The notes under the pieces were generated by a model. That model made no database searches and was not told the origin of the DNA. It saw only the letters and a program-made list of their open reading frames with translations. Positions 9,778 through 64,000 of a stretch of DNA of 64,000 nucleotides are shown here, one piece after another (within the stretch, counting starts at the first letter, position 1; every line of letters starts with the position of its first letter). The stretch is taken from assembly GCA_963783665.1 (NCBI GenBank), contig CAWANZ010000007.1, forward strand, positions 92,793-156,792, read 5' to 3'. The DNA is from Candidatus Aminicenantes bacterium. GTDB lineage: Bacteria > Acidobacteriota > Aminicenantia > Aminicenantales > UBA4085. The translations under genes were made by a program, and so were the position numbers.

Positions 9778-9816
9778 AGATAATCGATTGACACGGTCGA
9801 CTATTAGGAAAAGTCA

Positions 9817-10287
9817 TTGAGACTATCGACAAAAGGCGAGTATGCCAGCCGGGCGATGCTCGAGTTGGCGCTCCATTACGGGGAGGATCCTCTCCATATC
9901 CGGGACATCTCCAAGGCCCAGGATATCCCCGCGCGGTTTCTCGAACAGATCCTTCTCCAGATCAAACGGGCCGGTTTTTTAAAAAGCCGGAAAGGCCCCA
10001 ATGGCGGATATGTCCTGGCTAAACCGCCCGAAAAGATCTCCGTGGCCGAAATCATCCGGGTCATGGATGGTCCTTTGGCCCCGATCGATTGCGTCAGCGT
10101 CACCGCTCATGAGGTCTGTCCCAGGGAGAATTTCTGCGGCCTTCGTTGGCTCTGGAAGAAAAATCGCGACGCGATCGCCGAGATTCTCGAAGGAACTTCA
10201 TTTGCCGACGTAGCCGAAAGCACCCGGCAGGCGCTTCTAGCTTGGGAAGAAAAAAAGCATAATTCCTTACAGGAAAAGGAAAAATAA
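9817..10287 (+). CDS. Rrf2-family transcriptional regulator (IscR/NsrR-like; three Cys may bind Fe-S)
   Basis: MRLSTKGEYASRAML... wHTH. Cys triad CVSVTAHEVCPRENFC. TTG start. Confidence 0.85.
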   Translation: MRLSTKGEYASRAMLELALHYGEDPLHIRDISKAQDIPARFLEQILLQIKRAGFLKSRKGPNGGYVLAKPPEKISVAEIIRVMDGPLAPIDCVSVTAHEVCPRENFCGLRWLWKKNRDAIAEILEGTSFADVAESTRQALLAWEEKKHNSLQEKEK

Positions 10288-10346
10288 TTTTTTGAAAGAA
10301 TAATTGATATGATCAATAAACTATATCATCTAATTAGGAGTATCCG

Positions 10347-11324: not shown

Positions 11325-11336
11325 AAGGAGCTTTCC

Positions 11337-12284
11337 GTGAAAAGAGCGATAAGCCTGATTTTCAGCGCGGCGTTCGTCCTTTCCGCTTCCGCCCTCGGGT
11401 GCGCCCAGACGCCTGTTCCCGAAGGACGAGTCTCGATTTCCGGCGCTTGGGCCCTCTATCCCATGGTCGTCAAGTGGGCGGAGGAATTCCAGAAGATCTA
11501 TCCGAAGGTGAAAATCGACGTTCAAGCCGGCGGCGCGGGCAAGGGAATCGCCGATGCCCTGGCCGGCATGGTCGATTTCGGCATGGTGTCGCGCGACATC
11601 CATCCCGTCGAAATCGAGAAAGGGGCGAAGCCGTTTGCCGTCACAAAAGATGCCGTTGTCCCGATGATTCATGCGAAAAACCCCTACCTCAAGACGATCT
11701 TGGAAAAGGGGCTGACCCGGCAGGCCTTTGTCGATATCTGGATCACCAAGACCGCGACGACCTGGGCTGTCGTGCTGGGGATCAAGGCTCCGGCGCCGAT
11801 CCATGTCTTCACCCGCTCGGACGCCTGCGGGGCGGCCGAAACCTGGGCGGCTTTCCTTGGAAAGCGGCAGGAAGACCTGGCCGGTGTGGCCGTCTACGGC
11901 GACCCGGGACTGGCCGACGCCGTCCGCCGGGATTCCCTCGGCATCGGCTTCAATAACGTCAATTTCGCCTACGACCCGAAAACGCTGGTCCCTGTGGCCG
12001 GTCTCATCGCCGTTCCTATCGACCTTAACGGAAACGGAACGATCGACCCGGCTGAGCGGTTCTACCAAACGCGGGACGACCTGACTCGGGCCATCGCCGA
12101 TGGGCGGTATCCCTCGCCGCCGGCCCGGGATCTCTATTTCGTCTCGAAGGGTGGGCCGACCAAGCCGGCGGCGGTCGCGTTCCTCCGCTGGATTCTCGGC
12201 GAAGGGCAAAAATATGTTCCCGAGACCGGGTATATCCGGCTTGGCGAGGACAAGCTCAAGGCGGGGCTCGAGAAGCTGAAATAA
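11337..12284 (+). CDS. pstS: phosphate ABC transporter substrate-binding protein
   Basis: Signal peptide and PstS-like sequence (SGAWALYPMV..., GGAGKGI, TRSDACGAAE). Followed by pstCAB. Confidence 0.9.
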   Translation: MKRAISLIFSAAFVLSASALGCAQTPVPEGRVSISGAWALYPMVVKWAEEFQKIYPKVKIDVQAGGAGKGIADALAGMVDFGMVSRDIHPVEIEKGAKPFAVTKDAVVPMIHAKNPYLKTILEKGLTRQAFVDIWITKTATTWAVVLGIKAPAPIHVFTRSDACGAAETWAAFLGKRQEDLAGVAVYGDPGLADAVRRDSLGIGFNNVNFAYDPKTLVPVAGLIAVPIDLNGNGTIDPAERFYQTRDDLTRAIADGRYPSPPARDLYFVSKGGPTKPAAVAFLRWILGEGQKYVPETGYIRLGEDKLKAGLEKLK

Positions 12285-12289
12285 AAACG

Positions 12290-13177
12290 ATGGCCAAACG
12301 GCTGCTGAAAGACCTCTTCGCCCGGCGGGCGATGTTATTTCTCACCGCCGTTCCGGGAGTTTTCGTCTTTCTGATATTGTTGGGTCTCTACGGCAAGTCG
12401 CGGAGCATCCTGGCCGTTCGTTCCTTCGGCGAGCTTCTCCTCGGGACGTCCTGGCATCCGCTGAAAGGCGAGTTCGGGCTCTACCCCTTTCTGATCGGGA
12501 CGTTCTGGGTGACCTTCGCGGCGATGATCCTGGCTGTCCCGATCTCGCTTCTCTGCGCGATTTATCTTTCCGAATACGCTCCCCGGCGAGTCCGGGAAAT
12601 CATCAAGCCCGTCGTCGACCTCCTGTCCGGGATCCCCTCGGTCGTGTTCGGCGTCTGGGGCGTCCTGATGATCGTGCCGCTGGTGGCCAAGATCGCCCCT
12701 CTGTTCGGAAAATATTCTTCCGGGTACTCCGTGCTGGCCGGGGCGATTGTCCTGGCGATTATGGTTTTTCCGACGATCATTCATGTCTCGCTGGAAGTCT
12801 TCGCTGCGGTGCCCCAGTCGCTTCGGGATGCGTCGCTTTCGCTCGGAGCGACGAAATGGGAGACCGTCAAGCACGTCGTCTTGCGAAAAGGCCTGGCCGG
12901 GATGCTGGCTTCCGTCGTCCTCGGGTTTTCCCGGGCGTTCGGAGAAACGATGGCCGTCCTGATGGTCGTCGGCAACATCCCGGTGATCCCGAAATCGCCG
13001 TTCGACAGCGCCTACCCGCTGCCCGCCCTCCTGGCCAACAACTACGGGGAAATGATGTCGATTCCCTTGTACGACGGGGCGTTGATGCTGGCCGCCCTGG
13101 TCCTGCTCCTGATCGTCCTCATCTTCAACGTCATCGCCCGGATCGTCCTGATGCGGGCGGAACGAAAGGCGGAGTGA
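12290..13177 (+). CDS. pstC: phosphate ABC transporter permease PstC
   Basis: Six TM segments and the EAA-type loop SLRDASLSLGATKWETV. Confidence 0.9.
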   Translation: MAKRLLKDLFARRAMLFLTAVPGVFVFLILLGLYGKSRSILAVRSFGELLLGTSWHPLKGEFGLYPFLIGTFWVTFAAMILAVPISLLCAIYLSEYAPRRVREIIKPVVDLLSGIPSVVFGVWGVLMIVPLVAKIAPLFGKYSSGYSVLAGAIVLAIMVFPTIIHVSLEVFAAVPQSLRDASLSLGATKWETVKHVVLRKGLAGMLASVVLGFSRAFGETMAVLMVVGNIPVIPKSPFDSAYPLPALLANNYGEMMSIPLYDGALMLAALVLLLIVLIFNVIARIVLMRAERKAE

Positions 13178-14035
13178 TGGGATTCCGGCGACGGAAAGCG
13201 GAAGAAACGCTCTTCAAGGCGTTGATGATCGGCTCGACCGTCATCGTCGCCGGGAGCTTTCTCCTGATCATCGGGACGGTCGTCGTCAAGGGATTTCCCG
13301 GCGCTGAACCTGGCGATGATCACCCAGACGCCCAAGGGCGGCTATTACCTGGGCAAAGAAGGCGGGATCCTCAACGCGATCGTCGGCTCGCTGGAGCTGG
13401 CCGGCGGGGCGACCCTCCTGGCCCTCATCCTCAGTCTGCCCGTCGTCCTTTATATCAACGTCTATTCCCGGCGGAAATCGCGGCTGGCCGTTTTCACCCG
13501 GTTTGCCCTGGATGTTCTTTGGGGGATCCCCTCGATCGTCTACGGGGCGTTCGGGTTCATCCTGATGATGATGGTCGGCCTGCGGACATCGCTTCTGGCC
13601 GGGATCATCACCGTAGCTCTCCTCGAGCTTCCGATCATGGCCCGGGCGATGGACGAAGTCGTCCGGCTCGTGCCCCATTCGCTCCGCGACGCCTCGGCCT
13701 CGCTCGGAGCGACAAAGCTCGAGACGGCCTTCCATGTCATCGTCCGGCAATGCCTTCCGGGGATCATCACCGCGATCCTGATCGCCTTCGGCCGGGGCAT
13801 CGGCGACGCCGCCTCGGTCCTCTTCACTGCCGGCTTTTCCGACCGGATCCCCTGGAACCTGTTCGAGCCCGCGGCGACCCTGCCCCTGGCGATCTTCTTC
13901 CAGCTCGGCACGCCGTATCCTGAGGTTCAAGCGCGGGCTTATGCTTCGGCCGCCATCCTGACGATCATCATTCTCGTGGTCAGCCTTCTTTCGCGGTGGT
14001 TCAGCCGCAAATTCCGAAAAAACACGATTCACTAG
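13177..14035 (+). CDS. pstA: phosphate ABC transporter permease PstA (one +1 frameshift near 13296-13303)
   Basis: The N-terminus MGFRRRKAEETLFKALMIG...VVKGFP is in frame 1. The rest (ALNLAMITQTPKGG...) is in frame 2 (track ORF 13316..14035). An extra G in tttcccgGcgctg breaks the gene. EAA loop SLRDASASLGATKLETA. Confidence 0.85.
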
Positions 14036-52079: not shown

Positions 52080-53655
52080 ATGCGGCTGATCTCGAAAAGC
52101 AAATACCTGGCCGGGTTGCAATGCCGGAAGCTATTCTGGACATATTTCAAGGACCCTAAATCCATCCCGCCGATCGATGCGGCCACCCAAGCTATTTTCG
52201 ACCAGGGCCACGAAGTCGGCGACCTGGCGAAAACGCTTTTCCCCGGAGGTCTGGAAATCGAGGGCGAACCCTGGAAATTTAGTGATTTGATGGCCCGGAC
52301 CCGCGAGGCGATGAAAAAGCGGGTTCCCCTCTACGAAGCGGCCTTCGGGGCCCGCGGCTCATTTGCCCGGGCGGACATCCTCGTTCCGGTCGAAGAGAAG
52401 GCCTGGGATATCGTCGAGGTCAAGAGCGGAACCGAGGTCAAGCCGGTCAACATCCTCGATCTCTCGCTCCAGCGGTTCGCGGCCGAAAGCGACGGGCTGA
52501 AAATCCGGAAATGTTTTCTCATGCACATCGATAACACCTACGTCCGCCGCGGCCCGATCGAGGCGGAGCGATTGTTTGCCCGGGAAGACGTGACCGCAGC
52601 CGTCGACGAAGAATTCAAGAACGTCGAACCGAACCTGGAGCGCCTTCTCGCGGTGTTGGAGGAGGCGTCCACTCCGAACGTGCCGATCGGCCCGCATTGC
52701 GACGCCCCGTTTGTCTGCCCGCTTCATGACGTCTGCTGGAAATTCCTTCCCCAGGATAATCCGCTTAAAGTGAACGGCTTCAATAAAGATGAGGCGTTCA
52801 AGCTCATTCATCGCGGAATCATCAAGATCGGCGAAATGCCGCTTTACGATGGGCCGGGGGTCGGGCTCAAGAAAGCCAAGGATCTTGGTGTCTTTGTTCC
52901 CTTCAAGATCGGAGAAAAGCAAAACATTCAGATCGAAGCGGCCCGCTCGGGGCTGCCTTTCGTGAAGCCGTTCGAAATCAGGGAGTTCTTGAAAAAGCTT
53001 TCCTATCCCCGCTATTTTCTCGATTTTGAGACGTTCCAAACCGCGGTCCCGGAATTCGACGAGACGCGGCCGTATCAACAGGTCCCGTTCCAGTTTTCCC
53101 TCCACGTCGTTGCCGCGGCCGGGGCCGCGCCGGATCATTTTTCCTACCTTGCCGAAGGGAATGTCGACCCGCGGCCCGAATTCCTGGCTTTGCTTCGAGA
53201 GCGCCTCGGCGAGACCGGACCCGTCATTTGCTACAATGCCGCCTTCGAGCGCGGGATCGTGGAGGCGTCTGTCGAGGTCGTTCCGGATTTCAAGGGCTGG
53301 TGGAAAAAAACGGGCGGGCGGTTCGTCGATCTCCTGGTTCCCTTTCCGGTCGTTCGCGTATTACCATCCCGACCAGCTCGGCAGCGCTTCGCTGAAATCC
53401 GTCCTTCCGGCCGTGACCGGCGGGACGGGATACGAAGACCTGGAGATCTGCGACGGGGGGCAGGCGGCCTGGGAATACCGTCGGATCACGTTCGGCAAAG
53501 TCGAACCTGACGAACGCGCCAGGGTCCGCACACAGCTCGAAGAATACTGCGGCCTGGATACGGAAGCGATGATCCGCGTCGTTTCGGCGCTGGAAGCGCT
53601 CGAGCTTCCGGCGGTGGAACCGCGGAAGAGGAAAACGAGGGAGGGGAGGAGATGA
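52080..53655 (+). CDS. DUF2779-like protein (N-terminal PD-(D/E)xK-like nuclease region + C-terminal RNase H-like region); one frameshift near 53341-53349
   Basis: MRLISKSKYLAGLQCRKLFW..., ADILVP...WDIVEVKSGT, YFLDFETFQTAVP and ICYNAAFE. An extra C in ccctttCcgg shifts to ...FAYYHPDQLGSASLKSVLPA. Confidence 0.65.
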
Positions 53656-54546
53656 AAAAAATGGCGTTGATCGGCCTCCTGGCCTTGGTGTTGATTTTTC
53701 CCGGCGATCGCCGCCGCGCCAAGCACCGCCGGCCAAGAAGCTCAAGGTTTTCATTTCCGTCGATATGGAGGGCGTCAGCGGGCTCGTCAATTGGGACGAA
53801 ACATCGACCTCGGGGAAGGATTATGATTTGTTCCGGCGGTTGATGACCGAGGAGGCTTCTGCGGCCGTCTCCGGAGCCCTGAAAGCCGGGGCGACGGAGG
53901 TTGTCGTCCGGGACGCCCATGGGACGGGCCGAAATATTCTCCCTGATGCTCTCCATCTCGAAGCGAAGCTTCTCCGCGACTGGTCGGCCGGCCCGCTCAG
54001 CATGATGGAAGGGATCGATGAGACGTTTGACGCCGTCATCTTCATCGGCTACCACGCCCGGGCGGGCACGCCCGACGCCATCCTCGACCATACGATGATT
54101 TCCTCCCGGCTCCTTTACGTCGCGATCAATGGAATCCAGATGCCGGAAGCCGGGATCAACGGGTTGATTGCCGGGATGTTCGGCGTGCCGGTCGTCCTCG
54201 TTTCGGGGGACAAGGCGATCGCCGCCCAGGCCCGGGAGCTTTTCGGCGAGGTGGAAACGGTCATGGTGAAGGAAGGGATCGGGAACGCCGAGCTCGGCGT
54301 CTCATCCGAGCAAGGGGCGGGAGATGATCCTGGATGGCGTCACGCGCGGCCTTGAAGCGGCTGAAGGATTTCAAACCTTACAAGCTTAGCCCGCCTTACA
54401 CCCTGGATGTCTCCTATATCCTGGAATCCGAGGCTCAGAACGCGACTTGGATTCCCGGAGCGGTTCGCAAGGACGCCCGCACGGTCAGCTTCAAAGCCGA
54501 GACCGTGATGGACCTGATGAAGGTTTTCCGCCTGGCGAGGCAGTAG
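53652..54546 (+). CDS. M55-family D-aminopeptidase (DppA-like) with signal peptide; at least 3 frameshifts
   Basis: KVFISVDMEGVSG..., VVVRDAHG and IGYHARAG. The C-terminal piece is in ORF 54334..54546. Confidence 0.75.
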
Positions 54547-54684
54547 TTCCGGTCTTCACGGAAAAGTGCGTGGATTGAAGTTAAAGCAGACCTTCTGAAT
54601 ATTTCTTTGCCCTGAAACTGAAAAAACCCGGACCGGGGAACGTCCTTCCCTGAGCGAGCGATATTTTCGTAAAAACTACAGAAA

Positions 54685-54703
54685 GCAACTGAATATCAGT
54701 TGC
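54685..54703 (+). promoter_or_regulatory. perfect palindrome upstream of hicA-2 (candidate HicB operator)
   Basis: gcaactga-ata-tcagttgc, 29 nt upstream of the TTG start. Confidence 0.4.
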
Positions 54704-54731
54704 ATTTTCTTTTCCAGCGAGGTAATATTCT

Positions 54732-54992
54732 TTGAGCAAGCGCGACAAGCTGTTAGCGCGATTTCTGTCTAAACCAAAGGATTTCACGTTTGGCGAACTG
54801 AGAACTCTTTTGGAACGATTCGGTTACCGGGAATTTGCGGCCGGGGCGACCTCCGGCTCAAGGGTGATTTTCATCCAGACAGCTACTGGACATTTAATCC
54901 GGCTTCACAAACCGCATCCTTCTGATATTTTAAAAAGATATCAGTTGGATGCGATCGAGGAATGTCTTAGGGCGAAAGGACGGCTTAAATGA
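54732..54992 (+). CDS. hicA: HicA-family toxin (long form)
   Basis: KDFTFGELRTLLERFGY...GSRVIF...LHKPHP...LKRYQL pattern. TTG start. 4-nt overlap with hicB-2. Confidence 0.75.
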   Translation: MSKRDKLLARFLSKPKDFTFGELRTLLERFGYREFAAGATSGSRVIFIQTATGHLIRLHKPHPSDILKRYQLDAIEECLRAKGRLK

Positions 54993-55330
54993 AGAACGTC
55001 ATGGTTTACCGCGAATTTGCCGGGTCGGTCCATTATGAATCCCACGACGACTTTTTCCACGGGAAAATCGAAGGGATCGACGATTTGATCACGTTCGAAG
55101 GCCGGTCGGTCGCGGATTTGAAGAAAGCGTTTCGCGAGGCCGTCGACGATTATGAGAAAATTTGCTTGAACGCAGGGAAGTCCCCCCAGAAATCATATCG
55201 TGGAACGTTTAACGTCCGTGTCCCGCCGGCGCTCCACCACGCGGCCGCCCGTGCCTCCCTTCGGCAGGGGCTGACCTTGAATCAGTTCGTCCGAAAAGCT
55301 CTTGAACGAAGCGTGAGCGAATCGCGCTGA
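54989..55330 (+). CDS. hicB: HicB-family antitoxin with C-terminal RHH-like tail
   Basis: YREFAGSVHYESHDDFFHGKIEGIDDLITFEG...FNVRVPPALH... typical of HicB (COG4226-like). Confidence 0.8.
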   Translation: MKNVMVYREFAGSVHYESHDDFFHGKIEGIDDLITFEGRSVADLKKAFREAVDDYEKICLNAGKSPQKSYRGTFNVRVPPALHHAAARASLRQGLTLNQFVRKALERSVSESR

Positions 55331-55351
55331 CCGGTTGCGGTCGACCGGTCG

Positions 55352-55388
55352 AAAAAAAAGGCCGCTCCCCGGAGGGAGCGGCCTTTTA
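55352..55388. terminator. bidirectional intrinsic terminator between hicB-2 and gltA
   Basis: A8 tract, 10-bp stem ggccgctccc-cgga-gggagcggcc, then T4. Confidence 0.8.
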
Positions 55389-55401
55389 CGGTTACAGAAA
55401 A

Positions 55402-56742
55402 TTACTTCGCCAAACTCGGAGAAGAGCCAGGGGCGGCCGCGGCGGCCTTGATCTGGCTTTCCACCCACTCGGTCGTGACGGACTTGGGCCGTTCGAGCGG
55501 CAGGCCGAGGGCCCGGCTCCAGATGAGCTGGGCCATGGTGCCCAGGGCCCGGCTGACGCCGAAGAACACGGTGTAGAAGTCGTACTCGGTGATGCCGTAG
55601 TACATCAAGAGGACGCCGGAATGGGCGTCGACGTTCGGCCACGGGTTCTTGGCCTTGCCGTGTTTCAGGAGGATGTCCGGGGCGACCTTGTAGATCGAGC
55701 TGACGACCTGGAACAGGTCGTAGTCGGGAAGGTGCTTGAGGGCGAATTCGCGCTGGGCGACATACCGGGGATCGGTCTTCCGAAGGACGGCGTGGCCGTA
55801 GCCCGGGATGACTTTTCCGCCATTCAGCGTGTTCCAGAGGTACTTGGACAGCTGTTCCTCGTTGGGAACGCCGCCGAGGTCTTTCATCGTGTCCATGATC
55901 CAGCGGAGAACTTCCTGGTTGGCCAGGCCGTGAAGCGGGCCGGCCAGGCCGTCCATGGCCGCCGACAGGGAGTAGTAGGCATCCGACAGGGCCGAGCCGA
56001 CGAGGTGGCTCGTGTGAGCCGAGACGTTGCCGCCTTCGTGGTCGCTGTGGATGTCCAGGTACAGCCGCATCAAGTCATAGAAATCCGGCTTGTCGTTTCC
56101 GATCTGGTGGGCCAGGTTGGCCGCCCAGTCGAGCTTCGGGTCGGGGGCGATGTACTTGGCGCCCTTGTAGCAGCGCATGTAGATGCGGGCGGCGATCTCG
56201 GGCAGCTTGGCGAGGATGTTCATGACATCTTCGAACATCGGATCCCAGTAATCCTTCTTGTTCATGCCGTCCCGGTAGCGGGCGGCGAACACGGAGTCTT
56301 TCTGGAGAGCCAAGATGGCCAGGGAGAACTGGGTCATCGGGTGCAAGTCCATCGGGAGGGATTCGAGCACCTTGATGATGTAGTCGGGGAGCTTGGCCCG
56401 CTGTTTCCATTCCTCGCCGAGGGCCAGGGCGTCCTCGAGGGTCGGGACGTCGCCGGTCAGCAGCAGGTAGAAGAGGCCTTCGACAAGGGGTTCTTCCGTG
56501 CCGGGGAGCTTGGGCAGTTTGGCCTGAAGCTCGGGAATCGTGAATCCGCGGAAGCGGATTCCCTCGTTCGGATCGAGGGCGGAGACTTCCCAAACCATGC
56601 TCTTGACGCTGCGCATACCGCCATAGGCCTGGGCGATCGTGCAGTCGGCGATCTTCATTTCGCCGTGTTCCTTGAGGATCTTCTGGATCCTCTCGCGCAT
56701 GGGAACCATTTTCCCTGCGAAAACTTCTTTTAGGGTTGCCAT
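55402..56742 (-). CDS. gltA: citrate synthase
   Basis: GYGHAVLRKTDPR, catalytic His/Asp contexts (SDHEGGNVSAHT), 446 aa. Confidence 0.93.
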   Translation of the reverse strand: MATLKEVFAGKMVPMRERIQKILKEHGEMKIADCTIAQAYGGMRSVKSMVWEVSALDPNEGIRFRGFTIPELQAKLPKLPGTEEPLVEGLFYLLLTGDVPTLEDALALGEEWKQRAKLPDYIIKVLESLPMDLHPMTQFSLAILALQKDSVFAARYRDGMNKKDYWDPMFEDVMNILAKLPEIAARIYMRCYKGAKYIAPDPKLDWAANLAHQIGNDKPDFYDLMRLYLDIHSDHEGGNVSAHTSHLVGSALSDAYYSLSAAMDGLAGPLHGLANQEVLRWIMDTMKDLGGVPNEEQLSKYLWNTLNGGKVIPGYGHAVLRKTDPRYVAQREFALKHLPDYDLFQVVSSIYKVAPDILLKHGKAKNPWPNVDAHSGVLLMYYGITEYDFYTVFFGVSRALGTMAQLIWSRALGLPLERPKSVTTEWVESQIKAAAAAPGSSPSLAK

Positions 56743-56968
56743 TCGATAAAACCTCCTTTATGAAATGGCCGCGGTGATCACCCCGATAAGGGACTCGGGA
56801 GAACATGGATTTTATCTGGAAAAGAGGGGCAAGTCAATCGAAAAAACGCGTTTTCAAGCCTTGGCGGCGGACTTTTTCCGGGTGACTTGGGCGGTGAGCT
56901 GACAACTTCTTGCTTTTTCCCGGGGCTGGGCCTATCCTTTGGAGGAACGCCTCTCAAGGAGGGCTAAG

Positions 56969-57523
56969 ATGCCCGCTTTGTTATTGTTCCTGATTATCAT
57001 CGCGGTTGTCGTGTTTTACGTCATCGGCCTGTACAACAGCCTGGTGACCCTGCGCAACCGTTGCGACAACGCCTGGGCCCAGGTCGACGTCCAGCTCAAG
57101 CGCCGGTACGATCTTATCCCCAACCTGGTCGAAACGGTCAAGGGCTACGCCAAGCACGAGCGCGAGGTGTTCGAAAAGGTGACCCAGGCCCGGAACATGG
57201 CCATTTCCGCCTCCGGAGTCAAGGACCAGGGCCAGGCCGAGAACATGCTCAGCGGCGCATTGAAGTCTCTGTTCGCAGTCGCCGAAGCTTATCCCGAGCT
57301 TAAGGCCAACCAGAACTTCCTCATGCTCCAGGAAGAGCTGGCCGGAACAGAAAGCAAGATCGCCTACGCCCGGCAGTTCTACAACGACATCGTCATGAAG
57401 TTCAATACGAAACAGCAGGTTTTCCCTTCCAATATCATCGCCGGGATGTTCCAGTTCAAGACCAAGGAATACTTCGAGCTCGAAGAGCCGGCGGCCAAGG
57501 AGCCGGTGAAGGTCCAGTTCTAA
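56969..57523 (+). CDS. lemA: LemA-family membrane protein
   Basis: N-terminal TM followed by [42 protein letters not shown] before ATG 56969. Confidence 0.9.
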
Positions 57524-57569
57524 GTCCGGGCGGCTCTCACGGCCGCCTTCTCCGAAACGATACCCGGCG

Positions 57570-58460
57570 ATGTACGAGCAGATCGCGAGCAACAAGCGGC
57601 GTTCGATTTTCATCATCGCCTTTTTCGTCGTCCTGATCTTCCTCCTGGCTTGGGTGTTCGAGCAGCTTACCGGGATGGGGGAGGGAGGCATAATCTTCGC
57701 CGCCGTATTCGCCGGGATCTCGGCTTTTGCCGGCTATTACGCCAGCGATAAAATCGCCCTGGCCATCAGCCATGCCCGCCCCGTCACGAAGGATGAATTC
57801 CCCCACCTTTTCAATGTCGTCGAGGGTCTGACCATCGCCGCCGGAATCCCCGCCCCGCGTTGCTACGTCATTAATGACACCGCCCCAAACGCGTTTGCCG
57901 CGGGGCGAAATCCGGAGCACTCGGTCATCTGCGTGACGACCGGCCTTCTGGAAAAGCTCAACCGGGTGGAGCTTGAGGGCGTCGTCGCTCACGAGATGGC
58001 CCATATCAAGAATTATGACATCCGGCTTCAGACTTTGGCCGTGGTGATGGTCGGAGTCATCGCCCTCCTGGGCGACTGGATCATGCGGTCGGTCTGGTGG
58101 GGCGGGAAAGGCCGGAAAGTCTCGGGAGACCGAAGCGGCGCGGGGGCGATCTTTCTTGTGGTCGGCCTGGTCTTCGCCGCTTTCGGACCGTTGATCGCCC
58201 AGCTTTTACGCCTGGCGGTCTCGCGGCGGCGGGAATTCCTGGCCGATGCCTCGGGAGCGATGCTGACCCGCTATCCGCCGGGACTGGCCTCGGCTCTGCG
58301 GAAGATCTCGGCCGATCCCGAGCCGCTGGAGGCGGCCAACAAGGCCACGGCCCATATGTACATCGTCAATCCTTTGAAAAACCTCAAGGGCTCGCTGAAC
58401 AAGCTGTTCAGCACTCATCCGCCCATCGAGGAGCGGATCGCCGCGTTGGAAAAGATGTAA
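57570..58460 (+). CDS. htpX: M48-family zinc metalloprotease HtpX
   Basis: HEMAHIKNYD (HExxH), four TM segments, C-terminal STHPPIEERI. Confidence 0.92.
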   Translation: MYEQIASNKRRSIFIIAFFVVLIFLLAWVFEQLTGMGEGGIIFAAVFAGISAFAGYYASDKIALAISHARPVTKDEFPHLFNVVEGLTIAAGIPAPRCYVINDTAPNAFAAGRNPEHSVICVTTGLLEKLNRVELEGVVAHEMAHIKNYDIRLQTLAVVMVGVIALLGDWIMRSVWWGGKGRKVSGDRSGAGAIFLVVGLVFAAFGPLIAQLLRLAVSRRREFLADASGAMLTRYPPGLASALRKISADPEPLEAANKATAHMYIVNPLKNLKGSLNKLFSTHPPIEERIAALEKM

Positions 58461-58648
58461 TATTATTCTCCTCCAGATTTAATTGTTCGCAAATCTGAGC
58501 GCGCAATTATTCCAAAAAATCGCTTTCCCGGCGGACGGCCGGTTTATCGAGATGCGCTTCCCCTGGCTATATAGTTGAATATCAATATGATACGAGGAGC
58601 TCTTGAAAAAAAAGCCGAGCCCGGCTATAATCTTGCGGCCTATTAGGC

Positions 58649-58725
58649 GGGGCCGTAGTTCAGTTGGTTAGAACGCTGGCCTGTCACGTCAGAGGTCGCG
58701 AGTTCAAGTCTCGTCGGCCCCGCCA
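58649..58725 (+). tRNA. tRNA-Asp (anticodon GTC), CCA encoded
   Basis: Acceptor GGGGCCG/CGGCCCC, anticodon loop CTGTCAC, T-loop AGTTCAAGTCT, 3' GCCA. Confidence 0.9.
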
Positions 58726-58839
58726 CTCAAATCCCACCGCAACGGATACGCTTTTCGGCCCAGCGAAACCTTTAATTACGCCCGTGCGTATTTACGAAGG
58801 CGGCATTTTATCCTGCCTGCTTTCAAGGGGCGGGATGAT

Positions 58840-59259
58840 TTGGAGATGAGCATGTTCAAAATGTTGTCCGAAAGAAAATGGTTGGCGTTGATTGGAGGAT
58901 TGGCGGCCGTCCTTCTGGCGCTGCCCGGATTCGCGGCCCAAAGCGCGGCCGGCCAGGATCCGACAAAGGTTTATGAGAAGTTCCTGGGCAAATATGAATT
59001 CGACTTAAGCGCGATGGGCGGCGGCTCTCGAATCTTTGAATTCTATGTAAAGGACGGCGCCTTTTGGATCGAGTACGGCTTCACCTCGCCGGGGGAGCTG
59101 AAGGCGGTGACGAATACCGTCGATGAATTCACTTTCGACGAACCCGATGACGGGCTGATTAAGATCACCTTTCAGAAAGATACCGAAGGCAATTATTCGA
59201 AGTGTCGTTTCGTTGTCGAATCCCTGGGCGTGGATATCGTCGGCGATAAGATGAAGTGA
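58840..59259 (+). CDS. secreted hypothetical protein
   Basis: Signal peptide ...LIGGLAAVLLALPGFAAQ. The likely start is ATG 58852 (GGAG upstream). Confidence 0.55.
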   Translation: MEMSMFKMLSERKWLALIGGLAAVLLALPGFAAQSAAGQDPTKVYEKFLGKYEFDLSAMGGGSRIFEFYVKDGAFWIEYGFTSPGELKAVTNTVDEFTFDEPDDGLIKITFQKDTEGNYSKCRFVVESLGVDIVGDKMK

Positions 59260-59422
59260 ACGGAGCCGGATGATTCCGTCGCCGTCGTCAAGCTCCGAAT
59301 CATTTTTCTCCTCTTATTTAAATAGAATTCATCAGAATTCCGAGTTGTTGAATATTGAAGAGCGCCGCTGGAGCCTTCAGCGCAGTACTAAAATAACTAT
59401 AAACGCCCCGCCAAATCTTTTT

Positions 59423-59451
59423 TTGACTTGAGGCGGCTGTTTCCCTATACT
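59423..59451 (+). promoter_or_regulatory. strong sigma70-like promoter of the PqqD/precursor transcription unit
   Basis: TTGACT (59423-59428), exactly 17 nt, TATACT (59446-59451), preceded by an A/T-rich stretch. Confidence 0.6.
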
Positions 59452-59457
59452 CCCCTG

Positions 59458-59643
59458 GCGGAGAGGATTTCTGTCTTCATGCTTTGGCCTTCCACGGATT
59501 TCCGGGACCGGAACGCTCTTCGTCCGGGGGAGGAACGTCCGCTCAGCCGCCGGGCCCGGAGATTCCTATTCCGCGCGTTAAATAACCGGCGGAGCGCCTT
59601 CCTGCCCGTGGCCGGGTCTGATCCCTAAAAGGGAGAGATTGGC
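59458..59643 (+). promoter_or_regulatory. ~186-nt GC-rich structured 5' leader (candidate cis-regulatory RNA, class unknown)
   Basis: Helices ccgg(a)acg-ctctt-cgtccgg (59508-59527) and cgctc(ag)ccgccgg ... ccggcggagcg (about 59541-59553 with 59586-59596). The track ORF 59428..59628 starts inside the -35 box and is Arg-rich, so it is unlikely to be coding. Confidence 0.35.
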
Positions 59644-59922
59644 ATGATAATAACACTCGCGACGATCGTGAAGAAAAACGAGGATGTCATCGCCGGCAGC
59701 ATCGACCGGGAAATCGTGGCGATGAATATTCAGACCGGCAAATGCTTCCAATTAAACGAAACCGGAGGCCGCACCCTGGCCCTTCTCGATCAACCCCGTT
59801 CAGTCGGGGATTTGTGCGAGGAGATGGCCGCCGGATACGATATCGACAGGGAAATCTGCCGGAGGGATGTCATCGAATTCATCCAGGCCGTGGAAGAATT
59901 TGGCTTGATCAAGGTCGAATGA
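59644..59922 (+). CDS. PqqD-family peptide chaperone (stand-alone RiPP recognition element)
   Basis: 92 aa. The pattern ...DREIVAMNIQTGKCFQLNETGGRTLALLDQPRSVGDLCEEMAAGYDIDREICRRDVIEFIQAVEEFGLI matches the PqqD / lasso-B1 wHTH layout. GGGAGAG RBS. Confidence 0.85.
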   Translation: MIITLATIVKKNEDVIAGSIDREIVAMNIQTGKCFQLNETGGRTLALLDQPRSVGDLCEEMAAGYDIDREICRRDVIEFIQAVEEFGLIKVE

Positions 59923-60003
59923 CCGGCCCCTCTGACCCCAAGCGCCTCTTGCTATTTAAGAATTTATACCGTATCTTATAACGAGAGAGCGGGAGGTTTG
60001 CAA

Positions 60004-60150
60004 ATGGAAAATAAGAAAGATCAGAAAGAAGAGGGCCCTCGTCAATCGCTTCCGAAATGGGAAAAGCCTTCGGTGAAGGAAATCGATATTACAGTGGCCT
60101 CCGGATTGACCTTTACCTCCGTCGGCACTGATAATGTAATGTACAGTTGA
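60004..60150 (+). CDS. candidate RiPP precursor peptide, 48 aa (absent from the supplied ORF track)
   Basis: Own translation: MENKKDQKEEGPRQSLPKWEKPSVKEIDITVASGLTFTSVGTDNVMYS. GGGAGG lies 7 nt upstream of the ATG. It sits 81 nt after the PqqD gene. The WEKPSVKEIDI leader resembles PqqA (WxKPxhxxhxI) and lasso (YxxPxL...T-x) leaders. Confidence 0.7.
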   Translation: MENKKDQKEEGPRQSLPKWEKPSVKEIDITVASGLTFTSVGTDNVMYS

Positions 60151-60215
60151 AAGTTCGACGGAGCCCTCCCGGCGACCGTCCTAAATAACCGCTGACTTCG
60201 TGCGGCGGCGTCTTT

Positions 60216-60240
60216 CCTCTTCTGAAATCCCCGGAAGAGG
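60216..60240. terminator. hairpin between the convergent precursor and radical SAM genes
   Basis: cctcttc-N11-gaagagg stem. The flanks are T-rich on one side only. Confidence 0.35.
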
Positions 60241-60244
60241 GATG

Positions 60245-61273
60245 TCACTCTTCGTCGATATCGAAATCGTTCGTTTGCCGGTGTCCCATCGCCGTTACGA
60301 TCTCCTCGAGAGTGAACCATTGGTCGAATTTTTGAAAATCCAAGAACACTTCGCATGAGGCGCAAGGAATTCCGGCGCGGGCGGGGGCTGCTCCCATGAG
60401 CATTTGTCTCGCGTATCGCATTGCGCCGTTGTTGATCTCCTCCGCGAATCTTCCGCCCAGGGCGTTGTCGGCGTACACCCCGCTCACATTGTGACTGCAA
60501 CCGAGCAGCCGACCGTCCCAGCTGACCTGCGGAGACCTCCAGATCTCGAGACAGATGTTGCGCATGTAAATCTTGCCGGTCTTTTCCCGGAACGACTCCG
60601 TATCGTGAAATCCGATCATCCGCGTCAGGGCTTCATGATCGCGCACCGGGAGGAATCCCTTAAAGACATTAAGCTTGATGAAGAGTTCCATGCCCAGGGC
60701 TTTGGCCAAGACCGCGATCTTGCCGATCTCGTGTTCATTGTGTTCGAAGGGGATGAACTGGAGGATCAATCGAGGCCGGCCGCTTCGGCTCCGGTTTTTC
60801 AACTCGTTGATCTTTTGAACGTTGTTCAGGACTTTTCTCAGGTTCCCCCCGACCCGGTATGTTTGATACGTATCTTGCGTCGATCCGTCGATCGACACTT
60901 TCAAAAGCGCAACGCCGTACTTGACGAGGGCTTCCAAGGCTTCGTCGGAGGCGTCATTGAGGTTCGAGCCTTGTTTGATTGTGATCGTCACGCCCTTGTC
61001 ATGCGCGTATTTCAACATGGCGGGCAGCTCAGGATTGAGAAACACTTCGCCCGAATTTCCGATTTCGATGGCCCGGATTTGGGGATTTTCATCGATGAAT
61101 TCGATGAAGCGGGAGGCCGGCATAATCCCGCTCCCGATGAATGGCCTTCCCTTCCGGTGCCGGACGGGGCAGAGCAGGCAGCGGAGCTGACACCGGCTGC
61201 TGACATCAAGCCGTGCCGATTGCGGGTAGACCCGCAGGCCGTCAGCGCTTAATCGTTCTTCTCTGCCGGTCAT
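60245..61273 (-). CDS. radical SAM enzyme with partial SPASM/twitch-type C-terminal Cys domain
   Basis: CQLRCLLCP (Cx3Cx2C) about 30 aa from the N-terminus and the GGE-like motif GNSGEVFLNP. C-terminal CLEIWRSPQVSWDGRLLGC (Cx12Gx4C) followed by CASC. Start taken at the ATG overlapping the upstream stop (ATGA). An alternative in-frame ATG lies at 61291. Confidence 0.85.
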   Translation of the reverse strand: MTGREERLSADGLRVYPQSARLDVSSRCQLRCLLCPVRHRKGRPFIGSGIMPASRFIEFIDENPQIRAIEIGNSGEVFLNPELPAMLKYAHDKGVTITIKQGSNLNDASDEALEALVKYGVALLKVSIDGSTQDTYQTYRVGGNLRKVLNNVQKINELKNRSRSGRPRLILQFIPFEHNEHEIGKIAVLAKALGMELFIKLNVFKGFLPVRDHEALTRMIGFHDTESFREKTGKIYMRNICLEIWRSPQVSWDGRLLGCSHNVSGVYADNALGGRFAEEINNGAMRYARQMLMGAAPARAGIPCASCEVFLDFQKFDQWFTLEEIVTAMGHRQTNDFDIDEE

Positions 61274-62436
61274 TCCGCTTTGTTCAGACATGTCTTCGAG
61301 ATCTCCTTGACCGTTCGGGGTGAATCGTATCCCGAGTATTTTGCGGAAAAGGCGGCGGCCTTTTCCCGAAGGCCGGCCGAAGCGGCCGTGCAGTCGAACT
61401 TTTCCCGGACACGTTCGCTTTTGTCGAAAAAGCTTGCGAATTCGCATAGCCCCTGCTTTTGCAGCCGGTAGGCCAGGAGGGTTTGCTCGAGCTGTTCCGG
61501 ACAAAGGAGCAAGGGCTTGCCCGCAAGGAGCAGGCGGGTAGTCGTCGTCAGGCCTCCGTGCGTGACGGCCAGGTCGCATTCGGACGCGGCTCGTGAAAGA
61601 TCAATCGGTGAAGCGTGGATGCGGATCGTGGGCGATTCCATCATGTGCCGTTCGGATTCGGGCATATTCTTGACGTATCCGATCGCGGATAGTCCGAGCC
61701 TTCCGATATGATCGATGAAATCCTTGAGACAGCGATTGGCCATGCTCATATAGAATAATACCCTGGGCGTGCTTCCTTCCGGCCAGCGATAGTCGGCCTC
61801 AGTTCCACCGTCCAGAATCGGCCCCCAATACCGATCTTCCACCCGGTTTTCATAAGAATCGGTCTCGCGAAAGATCGTCAAGAAGCGTTGCGCGCCGCGA
61901 AAAATGTCAGCGACGGAATCGATCGAAGCCTCCACGCTTCGCAGCCTTTCCACGAGCATCGCTTCCGCCTCCGCAAGACGCATCTCCGGCAGAGAAAGCC
62001 AGGGATGGAGGCTGGGCATCGGGACTGCGGCCGGAGGGACGGTGAACCCTGTTCCGATAATCCCGCGGGGAATGGCGGAGGTCAAGGCGGACAGGAGGGC
62101 GGTGGGGGCATAATCCGAAAGGACATAATCAGGCTTGATCGCACGGAAGCGCTCCATCCACCATGCGAAATGAGATCGGAACAGCGCCTCGTCCCAGTAG
62201 CCGTTGCCCCAGATGCATTGTGCGAAGTTCAGCGAAAAACCGGTTTTGCGAATGATCCAGGCCGGGGTTTGCTCGATTTCAACGCCGAGCCCCTCCATGG
62301 CGACGCGGGCTTTAGCCGCATCATGACAAAAGACAACGACCCTGTTGCCGTCGGCAGTCAATTCCCGCGCGATCGGTTTGAGGCGAAGGATATGTCCCCA
62401 TCCCCCTCCCATCTCATTGGCGAAAACGATTTTCAT
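61270..62436 (-). CDS. GT-B fold glycosyltransferase (GT1/GT28, MGT/UDP-glycosyltransferase-like)
   Basis: MKIVFANEMGGGWGH N-terminal Gly-rich motif. C-terminal nucleotide-sugar motif THGGLTTTTRLLLAGKPLLLCP..EQ. Start moved to ATG 62436. Confidence 0.75.
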   Translation of the reverse strand: MKIVFANEMGGGWGHILRLKPIARELTADGNRVVVFCHDAAKARVAMEGLGVEIEQTPAWIIRKTGFSLNFAQCIWGNGYWDEALFRSHFAWWMERFRAIKPDYVLSDYAPTALLSALTSAIPRGIIGTGFTVPPAAVPMPSLHPWLSLPEMRLAEAEAMLVERLRSVEASIDSVADIFRGAQRFLTIFRETDSYENRVEDRYWGPILDGGTEADYRWPEGSTPRVLFYMSMANRCLKDFIDHIGRLGLSAIGYVKNMPESERHMMESPTIRIHASPIDLSRAASECDLAVTHGGLTTTTRLLLAGKPLLLCPEQLEQTLLAYRLQKQGLCEFASFFDKSERVREKFDCTAASAGLREKAAAFSAKYSGYDSPRTVKEISKTCLNKAE

Positions 62437-62456
62437 CGTCGGGGCCTGAATGATTC

Positions 62457-63440
62457 CTATTGATTCATGTGAGAATCGAGAATGATGCGGCAGAGTTCCT
62501 CCGGCCGCGGCGGCTCGGCGGGAAGACGGATTTCCTCCACCTTCACTCCGGCCGCAAGCGTCTGCAACAAATGAAAAAGGCGAAGCCGGTTTCCGGTATC
62601 CCCCATGGAATGGAGACAAAAGACGTGTTCCACAAGAGCCTGAAATTTGGCCGCGCCCGTGAGGTTTTCGAAAACGAGGGATGAATTCTGCGTCCGGCGC
62701 AGGATGAATATCTTCTTTAAAGAGGAAGGGACCTTCTTGAAATTAGTCCGGGCCAGGACGGCGATTTTATTCAAGGCCGGTTTTACCGGACCCGCAATCG
62801 TATGCTCGAATTTGATGTTCCGTAAAGCGTCGCCCCAAACCCTGATTTCAGGTATTCCCGGGACTACCCGGGGGCCGTCATCCTGAAAATCAATCACCGC
62901 CACATTGTCATCCAAGTATAGAAATCCGGCATTTAGAAAAGCGACGGCCATGGTGGACTTGCCGGCCCCGGATTCGGCGCAGATCGTGAAACACGACTCT
63001 CCGCGGCAGAGCGTGCTGCCGTGGAGGGGAAGCAGCCCGAGCTGGTGGAATATCCCGGCCAGAGCCCATCCCAGCAGCATTTGCCTGATCACGCCGGGAT
63101 TTCCCCCGGGGAGCCGTTCGACCGTTATGGTCTTGCCTTCTGAGATGAGAATCGTGGCGCTTTTCGACCCGCGGAGAAGGATCCTGCCCGGCGAGGCTTC
63201 AATCCGCACGGAGTCCGGCGGGACGTAGTCTGGGCCGAAAATCACGCCATGCCGGATCTCGATATCGGCCGCTCCGGAAGCAGGAGCGGCGGGCCACTGG
63301 GGAAAACGGATTTCAGATGAAAAATTGAGTCCGTAGGCTTGGTAGAAGTATGGATCGCCCGAAAAGAGCTCATCGTCCATCAGCAAACCGCCAGCCGCGC
63401 CGTCACGGCTCCGGTCAGGCATGGTGGAATTCGATTCCAT
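62457..63440 (-). CDS. HPr-kinase-like (HprK-related) P-loop serine kinase
   Basis: Walker A in the HprK C-domain context: LHGSTLCRGESCFTICAESGAGKSTMAVAFLNAGFLYLDDN. Size and layout resemble RiPP-associated HprK-related kinases. The start is uncertain (63440, 63422 or 63380). Confidence 0.75.
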   Translation of the reverse strand: MESNSTMPDRSRDGAAGGLLMDDELFSGDPYFYQAYGLNFSSEIRFPQWPAAPASGAADIEIRHGVIFGPDYVPPDSVRIEASPGRILLRGSKSATILISEGKTITVERLPGGNPGVIRQMLLGWALAGIFHQLGLLPLHGSTLCRGESCFTICAESGAGKSTMAVAFLNAGFLYLDDNVAVIDFQDDGPRVVPGIPEIRVWGDALRNIKFEHTIAGPVKPALNKIAVLARTNFKKVPSSLKKIFILRRTQNSSLVFENLTGAAKFQALVEHVFCLHSMGDTGNRLRLFHLLQTLAAGVKVEEIRLPAEPPRPEELCRIILDSHMNQ

Positions 63441-63996
63441 AAAACCTCGCCGGCATGAAGCCGCGATGGTTCAAGTTATGCGGGATGCGGGCTCCCATGA
63501 AGGCAAAGCCCGGGGCGTTGACGGTCTTCCCCAGGATTTCAAGGGAACCCTCGACGAGCACGATCAACGTCTCATGGTCATCACGGTGCAACGGGATCGC
63601 ATTGCCGGATGATAGCTTGTGATAGCGCACGTTCAAGCGGGGAAGAAAGCGCGTCGGACCGGAATAGACTTCGATTGTTCCGGGCTCTTCGTCCGATAAG
63701 GCCGCCTGGCGGGCGCCCCGGCGATAAAGAAAGTGCAGCCCTGCCTTGCCGTTCGCGAACGGTGGGCTTTTACGCCATCTGATATGCAGATACTCGGCCG
63801 GTTCATCGCCGGAATTTTGGGAATTATGCGGAATTGTCGAGTCCAGAAAAAAAAGCGAACCGCTCTCAGGAGCGGACGTCCGCTTTTCCCCAGAATCGGG
63901 GTCGCGGAAGGTGAATTGAATATTGTCGGAAAGGGTAATGTGCATCTCTTCGTGATCGTGGGTGTGAATTTCATGGGGGGCGACGTTTGCGCTCAT
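63415..63996 (-). CDS. cupin-domain protein (two cupin-like halves)
   Basis: HEIHTHDHEEMHITL (HxH...E metal motif) in the N-terminal half and PLHRDDHETLIVLVEG in the C-terminal half. Overlaps the kinase ORF by 26 nt. Its upstream region lies outside the window. Confidence 0.6.
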   Translation of the reverse strand: MSANVAPHEIHTHDHEEMHITLSDNIQFTFRDPDSGEKRTSAPESGSLFFLDSTIPHNSQNSGDEPAEYLHIRWRKSPPFANGKAGLHFLYRRGARQAALSDEEPGTIEVYSGPTRFLPRLNVRYHKLSSGNAIPLHRDDHETLIVLVEGSLEILGKTVNAPGFAFMGARIPHNLNHRGFMPARFYGIEFHHA

Positions 63997-64000
63997 GACC

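Follow-up and report, generated by a model that had tools for sequence, protein, structure and literature searches.

A predicted phosphorylated-type lasso-peptide gene cluster encoding a glycosyltransferase, a radical SAM enzyme and a bicupin in a Candidatus Aminicenantes genome

Our analyses of a 64,000-nucleotide (nt) stretch of DNA from Candidatus Aminicenantes bacterium (assembly GCA_963783665.1, contig CAWANZ010000007.1, positions 92,793–156,792; hereafter the window) indicate that the genes at its positions 59423–64000 most probably form part of a lasso-peptide gene cluster of the phosphorylated (paeninodin/pseudomycoidin) type and represent a distinct sub-family found mainly in anaerobes. 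The lasso scaffold and the serine kinase of this cluster are of already known types; what appears to be new here is a tailoring module consisting of a glycosyltransferase (GT), a radical S-adenosylmethionine (rSAM) enzyme and a bicupin, together with an unusually short core peptide that ends in Tyr-Ser. More tentatively, and with a confidence that stops a little short of even, we propose that these clusters encode the first lasso or lariat peptides tailored by rSAM enzymes, viz. the products of a large sub-family from anaerobes (Desulfobacterota, Chloroflexi, and others) in which a very short core with a constant D-x3-Tyr-Ser tail would be phosphorylated and glycosylated and would then undergo oxygen-independent rSAM/bicupin chemistry on the glycan or on Tyr13, in which some rings would comprise 10–11 residues and thus be larger than any known, and of which the member in the window would mature with no B2 protease of its own.

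The assignment to the lasso peptides rests mainly on sequence that lies just past the end of the window. An ENA contig (ERZ25039462 contig_15881, referred to below as L001), which was reached through the kinase homologue P0001 (100% coverage), aligns with the last 11.5 kb of the window (52486–64000) at 95–98.6% nucleotide identity, the stretch that reaches the window end being 98.6% identical and window position 64000 corresponding to position 9441 of L001. Past this point the cupin gene is completed in L001 and is followed, 0.2 kb past the window end, by a gene for a 638 amino acid (aa) homologue of asparagine synthase (L001 7294–9210), for which the best NCBIfam model is the lasso isopeptide cyclase NF033535 (1e-108; 365 bits vs. 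164 bits for asparagine synthase) and which can be aligned end to end with PsmC, the cyclase of the pseudomycoidin cluster (29% identity, 8e-89). A lasso cyclase (C) gene is found in every rSAM-type relative with enough flanking sequence, and the closest relatives additionally carry B2 and an ATP-binding cassette (ABC) exporter. Two points concerning the cyclase weigh against this assignment: the cyclase is known from the conspecific contig L001 and not from the window itself, and its 365 bits fall below the curated cut-off of 525 for NF033535 (an "exception" model, lass_lactam_cya).

The sequence-only reading of this DNA had proposed an undescribed class of peptide that is made on ribosomes and modified after translation (RiPP), to be given up if lasso B2 or C genes appeared downstream, and it is such a C gene that L001 holds 0.2 kb past the window end. 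It is correct in stating that the window contains neither B2 nor C (a search with a B2 hidden Markov model (HMM) was negative there), yet this reflects only the position of the window edge, which has cut off the class-defining genes, and its expectation that the cluster may continue past 64000 is confirmed by L001, where the remainder of the cupin gene and then the cyclase follow. We regard as very improbable the proposal of a new RiPP class in which the rSAM enzyme, kinase, GT and cupin act on a PqqA-like precursor independently of lasso chemistry. The lack of B2 and C within the window would agree with it, as would the existence of a related family outside the lasso peptides, the linear polyphosphorylated peptides (LPPs), whose clusters combine a RiPP recognition element (RRE), an HprK-like kinase and a nucleoside triphosphate (NTP) transferase and have no cyclase (PMC13381572). 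However, the lasso cyclase is adjacent both in L001 and in every rSAM-type locus with enough flank, an Asp is present at core position 7–11 in all 24 of the precursors described below, neither a PsmN-like NTP transferase nor an SpI-type peptidase was seen at the window locus (no search aimed specifically at the latter was made), and the PqqA, PqqE, HPr-rel-A and SynChlorMet models all lie far below their cut-offs. The PQQ (pyrroloquinoline quinone), HPr-rel-A, SynChlorMet, GeoRSP, WgkC and mycofactocin families were rejected on their curated cut-offs (for example, scores against equivalog cut-offs of 30.9 vs. 200 for HprK_rel_A, 22.1 vs. 35 for PqqD_rel_X, 16.6 vs. 100 for ScmD and 22.6 vs. 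400 for ScmE).

The features of the locus within the window are as follows.

59644–59922, plus strand: PqqD-family RRE, lasso B1 protein, 92 aa (PF05402 PqqD, 6e-18, above cut-off)
60004–60150, plus strand: precursor A, 48 aa (GGGAGG ribosome-binding site 8 nt upstream)
60004–60105, plus strand: leader of precursor A, 34 aa, MENKKDQKEEGPRQSLPKWEKPSVKEIDITVASG (W-x-x-P-x-V RRE-binding motif at −16 to −11)
60106–60150, plus strand: predicted core LTFTSVGTDNVMYS, 14 aa, plus stop codon (register taken from the family consensus)
60214–60242, unstranded: 11-bp GC-rich hairpin in the gap between the convergent peptide and rSAM genes (RNA fold of 60148–60248, −38.3 kcal/mol, z = −2.8)
60245–61291, minus strand: rSAM enzyme with one auxiliary Fe-S cluster, 348 aa (PF04055, 6e-10, above cut-off)
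61270–62436, minus strand: GT-B fold glycosyltransferase, GT1-like, 388 aa (weak family matches; remote PDB matches to YjiC and OleD)
62457–63440, minus strand: HprK-like lasso peptide kinase, 327 aa (homology to PsmK; HprK_rel_A, TIGR04352, 1.5e-7, far below cut-off)
63415–64000, minus strand: bicupin, 232 aa in full, of which the C-terminal 194 codons are in the window (PF07883, 2e-7, above cut-off)
59423–59451, plus strand: promoter-like site TTGACT-17-TATACT upstream of B1 (weak evidence; 10/12 matches in a consensus scan that gave 3 sites in the region vs. 1.0 expected)

The six open reading frames (ORFs) and their domains had been called previously from the nucleotide sequence, and both the ORF check and the domain searches bear them out. 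The close packing reported for the minus-strand genes holds for the 26-nt overlap between the cupin and kinase genes and for the 20-nt gap between the kinase and GT genes; it does not hold for the supposed ATGA start of the rSAM gene (Met at 61273), as 26 homologues favour the Met of MSEQSG at 61291, which gives an overlap of 22 nt with the GT gene. The distance of 94 nt from the rSAM stop to the peptide stop was given correctly, and the hairpin that lies between them is, judging from its modelled fold, a probable bidirectional terminator. For the cupin gene, by contrast, the supposed start at 4 nt from the edge of the window is incorrect: its frame is open to 63999, and full-length homologues of 232–252 aa share a conserved N-terminus, in comparison with which the window end removes about 39 codons.

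The L001 copy of this region differs from the window by 43 gap openings in 10.6 kb, its rSAM gene is split by a frameshift, and its precursor leader reads KKRALRQSL where the window has KEEGPRQSL; the many small indels of L001 look like long-read indel noise and not biology.

By homology, the protein that had been described as a stand-alone PqqD is a lasso B1 protein of the leader-binding kind. The best NCBIfam model for it is lasso_PqqD_Bac (2.4e-17, 62.9 bits vs. a cut-off of 80), and it shares 30% identity (E 1e-15) with the pseudomycoidin protein PsmB1. Its proposed role in leader recognition, with the 48-aa ORF as the RiPP substrate, is supported. The likening of the leader to that of PqqA is not, since the W-x-x-P-x-V element of the precursor (MENKKDQKEEGPRQSLPKWEKPSVKEIDITVASGLTFTSVGTDNVMYS in full) is an instance of the general lasso/RRE leader motif [Y/W]xxPx[L/V/I] (PMC13381572, PMC10368454) and the PqqA model gives 0.054, which is below its cut-off.

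Further information regarding the precursor was obtained from 24 distinct peptides of the rSAM-type sub-family, that of the window included, which were aligned. In all 24 of them a Trp is located exactly 16 residues ahead of the predicted cleavage site, within W-x-x-P-x-[IVLM], and most have Thr at −2. Their cores are 12–17 residues long and usually begin with Ser, Ala or Gly; an Asp is found at core position 7–11 in 24/24, most often at position 9, and every core ends in D-x3-[Y/W]-S, the aromatic residue being Tyr in 23 cases and Trp in one, so that the family consensus of the core may be written as x-[GST]-x-x-x-x-G-x-D9-[NG]-x-x-Y-S. Repeating the precursor search without a forced aromatic residue before the final Ser yielded no further plausible precursor. 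The 50 precursors of lasso clusters that carry only the kinase have longer cores (17–37 residues), and Tyr at −2 occurs in only 10 of them; the enrichment of this Tyr in the rSAM-type precursors gives a Fisher p of 2e-10, a value that is overstated because the sequences are related.

Read in the family register, the window core LTFTSVGTDNVMYS is predicted to form a Leu1–Asp9 isopeptide ring that is followed by a 5-residue tail ending in Tyr13-Ser14. Its closest counterparts are GTFSGSGTDNNNYS (L086) and SSFVNTGTDNTSYS (L087), and the cores of Desulfatiglans anilini DSM 4660 (L085) and of the Chloroflexi locus L083 are AGTTGDGSDNQSYS and SGPFFPLAPLDGTFGYS, respectively. Several features of the window peptide weigh against the lasso assignment. 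The leader motif and Asp9 are present; however, the register is Ser(−2)/Gly(−1)/Leu1, which lacks the canonical Thr(−2) and begins the core with Leu, and two other registers are possible from the sequence, viz. Ser1–Asp11, or Ala1–Asp12 after Thr-Val with its Thr at −2. In addition, a tail of 5 residues is very short for a threaded lasso, and the product could instead have the topology of a branched cycle. Ser(−2) is also found in L108, and there is experimental precedent for penultimate leader residues other than Thr in phosphorylated lasso peptides (PMC10368454).

The ring size predicted for some relatives is a separate observation. Given the conserved leader spacing, the sole available Asp is at core position 10 or 11 in the precursors L083 8647 (SGPFFPLAPLD...), L095 119 (SASNDTSLASD...) and L093 2661 (SSTPTPGSFD...). 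Known lasso rings contain 7–9 residues, and the rings predicted for these three precursors would exceed that range.

The kinase provides a further connection with the phosphorylated lasso peptides. It is 30% identical to PsmK over 246 aa (E 4e-33), and its residues H140, K161, D177 and D178 are invariant in 25 homologues; mutagenesis of lasso kinases has established that the corresponding His-Lys-Asp-Asp motif is indispensable (PMC9266682). Homologues of the kinase carry the precomputed annotation PF27840 ScmC. A scan of genomes with the single sequence had found no relative, whereas a profile built from the 25 homologues led to 80 genomic loci. At nearly all of these the kinase gene is beside an Asn-synthase-type C gene, and at most of them also beside a gene for a transglutaminase-core B2 or a PqqD B1; they include Bacillus pseudomycoides (pseudomycoidin) and many Paenibacillus/Bacillus genomes of the paeninodin type. 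In the case of the characterised lasso kinases, the phosphate is placed on the C-terminal Ser while the precursor is linear (PMC9266682), and Ser is the final residue in the window peptide as in 24/24 sub-family precursors. By analogy, the window kinase is predicted to phosphorylate the C-terminal Ser of its linear precursor.

The set consisting of cupin, kinase, B1, A, GT and rSAM genes has been identified in the window/L001 and in L002–L007, L012, L083, L085–L087, L092–L098, L108 and L112. The earlier expectation that these genes should co-occur in other genomes has proved right: more than 20 loci, from several phyla and with various gene orders, have the kinase, GT, rSAM enzyme and cupin as conserved partners. 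The sources include JGI (L002), a Deltaproteobacteria metagenome-assembled genome (MAG; L003), Smithella (L004), Desulfatiglandaceae (L005), a Geobacter MAG (L006), Chloroflexi (L083), the cultured Desulfatiglans anilini DSM 4660 (L085, positions 2149–13931; AULM01000005.1), Desulfobacterales (L086) and further metagenome loci. Many of these clusters contain two rSAM paralogues, where the window has one, and the fuller clusters add B2, an ABC exporter and a PsmN-type NTP_transf_5 protein. The module of GT, rSAM enzyme and bicupin is conserved and apparently not yet described in lasso clusters.

Two of these loci show additional features. In L005 (2195–3560 and 5894, minus strand), a second kinase, a B2 and a second precursor ending in ...DGWS are located a few kb from the first set, which suggests either two lasso systems side by side or one shared B2. 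In L086, besides the GT-B gene, three GT2 genes (6147–8972) lie ahead of the two rSAM genes, which suggests that this member carries a larger glycan.

The GT of the module has an N-terminal GGGWGH loop, weak matches to the Glyco_trans_4_4 (GT4), GT28_C, MJ1255 and MGT families, and matches in PDB sequences to YjiC, a UDP-glycosyltransferase (7vlb) and OleD (3e-5 to 2e-3). It is present in 13/13 tabulated rSAM-type lasso loci, with the rSAM gene directly downstream each time and often overlapping it. The rSAM enzyme has the CX3CX2C motif (C34/C38/C41) and four further cysteines (C247/C265/C310/C313), all invariant in 27 homologues, and the four in the C-terminal part fit one auxiliary cluster. 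In Foldseek searches with its AlphaFold2 model (mean predicted local distance difference test score, pLDDT, 88.8), the matches at template-modelling scores of 0.5–0.6 comprise the peptide maturases SuiB, SkfB, CteB, EpeE and TigE as well as the sugar and nucleoside enzymes BlsE, DesII, BtrN, viperin and AprD4.

At least 560 metagenome matches were obtained for the rSAM family. The rSAM protein P0059, which is encoded on an NCBI/ENA contig together with the kinase copy P0187, is identical (100%) over 84% of the window rSAM enzyme. Homologues above about 45% identity are all in lasso clusters; among those that are 38–45% identical, most metagenome loci of at least 9 kb have no lasso genes, and the idea that the rSAM family is wholly lasso-specific was rejected for the wider family and holds only above about 45%. 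The commonest neighbours of the 38–45% relatives are GT4/GT1 and GT2 enzymes, methyltransferases, enzymes of the RmlD/GDP-mannose-dehydratase type, sugar O-acyltransferases and polysaccharide deacetylases. In the lasso-free loci L105, L106, L136, L140, L143 and L158, for instance, the rSAM gene is beside genes for GT4/GT2 enzymes, an AT3-SGNH sugar O-acyltransferase, a polysaccharide deacetylase, nucleoside diphosphate (NDP)-sugar enzymes or a stand-alone cupin (L143). The constant adjacency of GT and rSAM genes and the glycan-type contexts of the remoter rSAM enzymes tilt the balance towards a carbohydrate substrate, although this evidence is modest: the structural matches of the rSAM enzyme are evenly split with the peptide maturases, and only a handful among 21 heterogeneous loci underlie the enrichment of glycan contexts.

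The bicupin, the full length of which was taken from P0179/L001, retains the metal motif of its first barrel (H50-x-H52-x3-E56...H96), and its AlphaFold2 model (pLDDT 75.5) matches generic bicupins in Foldseek, viz. OxdC (oxalate decarboxylase), MncA, AerE and BacB. AerE and BacB are compact bicupins that act as oxygen-independent isomerases, and because the hosts of the present bicupin are mostly anaerobes, an oxygen-dependent role appears less likely for it. Fusions of the rSAM enzyme with the bicupin exist in both orders (cupin N-terminal in P0136 and C-terminal in P0134, P0139 and P0144), which suggests that the two work together.

It is possible, though we hold it to be the less probable assignment, that within the same lasso cluster the rSAM enzyme, with the bicupin, acts on the peptide, introducing a C–C or C–O crosslink or an epimerisation at or near Tyr13, and that the GT then decorates the product. 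The rSAM enzyme is a member of the SPASM/twitch lineage, the predominant one among RiPP maturases, as the peptide maturases among its top structural matches and its partial NCBIfam matches (WgkB, ScmE, StsB and the mycofactocin maturase) illustrate; the Tyr (once Trp) at −2 is invariant only in the rSAM-type clusters; and BacB and AerE, the size-matched structural neighbours of the bicupin, act on tyrosine-like rings. Against a peptide target, the rSAM enzyme has no RRE domain of its own, its gene always follows that of the GT, whichever GT family is present (L086 with its added GT2 genes included), its remoter homologues are found in glycan-type loci without precursor or RRE, and BlsE and DesII, which are sugar enzymes, are placed no lower in the structural comparison than the peptide enzymes. 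The earlier view of the rSAM enzyme as a peptide crosslinker at the core of the cluster is not supported: no result shows that it makes such a crosslink, and its remoter relatives are located in glycan loci. We accordingly retain the glycan as the somewhat better candidate for the substrate of the rSAM/bicupin pair.

The copy of the cluster in the window departs from its fuller relatives in that no B2 protease or exporter has been identified for it, and the lack of B2 counts against the interpretation of the locus as a lasso cluster. Searches by tblastn and with an HMM made from 8 B2 sequences, in six frames of the window and L001, found no B2 anywhere in the 64-kb window or the adjoining 9.4 kb (best E in the window = 0.47), and B2 is absent from the flanks of L004, L006 and L007 as well. 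In other relatives B2 is detected: the L002 and L085 proteins score above the curated NF033537 cut-off, and B2 is found also in L003, L005, L083, L086, L087, L096–L098 and L112. Neither an exporter nor a PsmN homologue was found at the window locus, and no alternative leader peptidase was found, the only peptidase near it being an HtpX/M48 protein paired with LemA, which is probably housekeeping.

A decaying remnant, in which B2 and the exporter have been lost and no mature product is made in this organism, is an unlikely but coherent explanation of these absences. Directly upstream of C, where L002 and L003 carry B2 and ABC-D, L001 has a small secreted protein of no known family and a fragmented MacB/FtsX permease, and the cleavage site of the window peptide, Ser(−2)/Gly(−1)/Leu1, has drifted from the Thr(−2) and the Ser, Ala or Gly at +1 that are found in most relatives. 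Decay is, however, not what the genes themselves suggest, as the six window genes and the C gene of L001 have kept their full length and can be aligned with their homologues from end to end (the frameshifts noted earlier are elsewhere in the window), with the invariant catalytic and cluster-binding residues retained, and Ser(−2) is shared with L108. Moreover, a B2 gene may be several kilobases distant from the rest of its cluster, L005 being an example, and one could be present at another genomic site here, and pseudomycoidin has been made without B1/B2 in heterologous hosts (PMC6993621). As regards the permease in L001, a MacB_PCD/FtsX-type ABC permease is present in three pieces at 3878–6450, on the strand opposite to the cyclase, and it may represent either assembly frameshifts or a pseudogene.

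Taking the locus as a functional lasso cluster, we propose the following order of events. B1 would first bind the W-x-x-P-x-V leader of the 48-aa precursor, a step for which homology is shown and binding is deduced from sequence. The HprK-like kinase, as its characterised homologues do, would then phosphorylate the invariant Ser14 on the still-linear precursor; C-terminal Ser phosphorylation is known to act on the linear precursor, and a hexose can be carried on the phosphate (PMC9266682, PMC6993621). As the gene context suggests, the GT-B enzyme would next add a sugar either to the phosphate, as in pseudomycoidin, or to the hydroxyl of the invariant Tyr13, and the rSAM enzyme and bicupin, acting as one unit, would most likely remodel this sugar in the absence of oxygen; action on Tyr13 itself is the less likely alternative. 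Lastly, the leader would be removed and the cyclase would join the new N-terminus (predicted Leu1) to Asp9, giving a lariat or lasso of 14 residues, the last five of which form the tail.

Lasso peptides are prized for the stable scaffold that they offer, and every additional tailoring reaction enlarges the range of structures accessible from it. The tailoring reported so far comprises phosphorylation, hexose on phosphate, Ser glycosylation, methylation, acetylation, hydroxylation, epimerisation, citrullination and aspartimide formation, and none of these is carried out by an rSAM enzyme (PMC9266682 and our literature searches); hence, a conserved module of GT, rSAM enzyme and bicupin would point to new chemistry that is compatible with anoxia. 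The fixed 5-residue Tyr-Ser tail suggests, in turn, a phospho-glycan as the stopper and not bulky side chains. That a bulky C-terminal decoration could hold so short a tail is speculative; for pseudomycoidin, such a stopper has been proposed and not shown (PMC6993621). The cultured carrier Desulfatiglans anilini DSM 4660 (AULM01000005.1) makes this question testable.

The surroundings of the cluster may be described briefly. A tRNA-Asp(GTC) gene is located 1 kb upstream of B1 (58649–58725, plus strand), and the GC content across the last 6 kb (58000–64000) is 0.545–0.573 vs. about 0.60–0.65 in most of the window; the lower GC content and the neighbouring tRNA-Asp are compatible with a horizontally acquired island. 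Immediately 5′ of the tRNA is the LemA–HtpX (M48 peptidase) pair (56939–58460, plus strand), which probably does not belong to the cluster. An Rfam scan of 58400–60400 gave only the tRNA-Asp and a chance snoRNA-like match. The cluster is flanked by genes for two paralogous small secreted proteins of 139 and 132 aa (window 58840–59259, plus strand, and L001 6700–7098; 31% identity), both with a signal-peptide-like N-terminus and no Pfam match, which were seen only at the locus of this organism and not in its relatives.

Among the known systems with which this locus may be compared, PQQ clusters likewise have a PqqD-fold RRE beside an rSAM enzyme and a short peptide. However, the PQQ_PqqD model gives 26 bits vs. 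a cut-off of 46, the window peptide lacks the Glu/Tyr pair of PqqA and falls below the PqqA cut-off, the rSAM enzyme (one auxiliary cluster) gives no match to PqqE, and no PqqB or PqqC was found among the genes called in L001. The LPPs (PMC13381572) are a non-lasso family with the same types of RRE and kinase, and their clusters are often without B2 and C. Their hallmarks are an SpI-type leader peptidase, an NTP transferase, an MsbA-like exporter and no cyclase, whereas the window locus has a lasso cyclase adjacent to it and no homologue of NTP_transf_5 or of the MsbA-type ABC proteins; no member of the S26 (SpI-type) family is present among the genes called in L001, though S26 was not specifically searched for.

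Within the lasso peptides, earlier papers have described or noted clusters that encode HprK-type kinases, NTP transferases and GT2 enzymes (PMC9266682, PMC6993621, PMC7533575, PMC8498205). Our literature searches found no paper that describes an rSAM enzyme or a cupin in a lasso cluster, or the present set of GT, rSAM enzyme and bicupin, although a passing mention in older lasso papers is possible, and, within the searchable literature, the earlier statement remains valid that no described system has an rSAM enzyme together with an HprK-type kinase and a GT. The davasins of Streptomyces davaonensis resemble the predicted product in being lasso peptides glycosylated by a dedicated GT of the cluster, IgtG (PMC11912497). 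They differ in that IgtG, which was assayed in microsomes, acts iteratively on a Ser of the mature lasso and has no kinase, rSAM or cupin partner (PMC11912497), while the window enzyme is a GT1-like GT-B. The paeninodin, ThcoK, SyanK and BsfK systems (PMC9266682, PMC10368454) share with the window the kinase family, its His-Lys-Asp-Asp motif and B1-assisted action on the linear precursor. Beyond the kinase, the clusters of these systems encode no tailoring enzyme other than an NTP transferase or a sulfotransferase, and BsfK targets Ser3 and not the C-terminus (PMC9266682, PMC10368454). Ile/Val(−2) has precedent among phosphorylated lasso peptides in Bradymonadales, Acidobacteriaceae and Sphingomonadales, and the Ser(−2)/Leu1 predicted for the window is not among the reported cases (PMC9266682, PMC10368454).

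The most similar system is the pseudomycoidin cluster psmCAKB1B2ND of Bacillus pseudomycoides DSM 12442 (PMC6993621). There, the hexose requires the nucleotidyltransferase PsmN (NTP_transf_5), whereas here the sugar would come from the GT-B enzyme; the psm locus has neither an rSAM enzyme nor a cupin, and it has the B2 and D genes that the window locus does not. The core of pseudomycoidin is also longer, with 22 aa and a 13-residue tail vs. 14 aa and a fixed 5-residue tail for the window. The two systems have in common a lasso C protein, a split B1, an HprK-like kinase for the C-terminal Ser, a precursor with a W-x-x-P-x-L leader (W-x-x-P-x-V in the window) that ends, like that of the window, in ...K-Y-S, and the addition of a sugar after phosphorylation, which for the window is a prediction, and it was for pseudomycoidin that decoration of the C-terminus was proposed by its authors to serve as a lock on the tail (PMC6993621).

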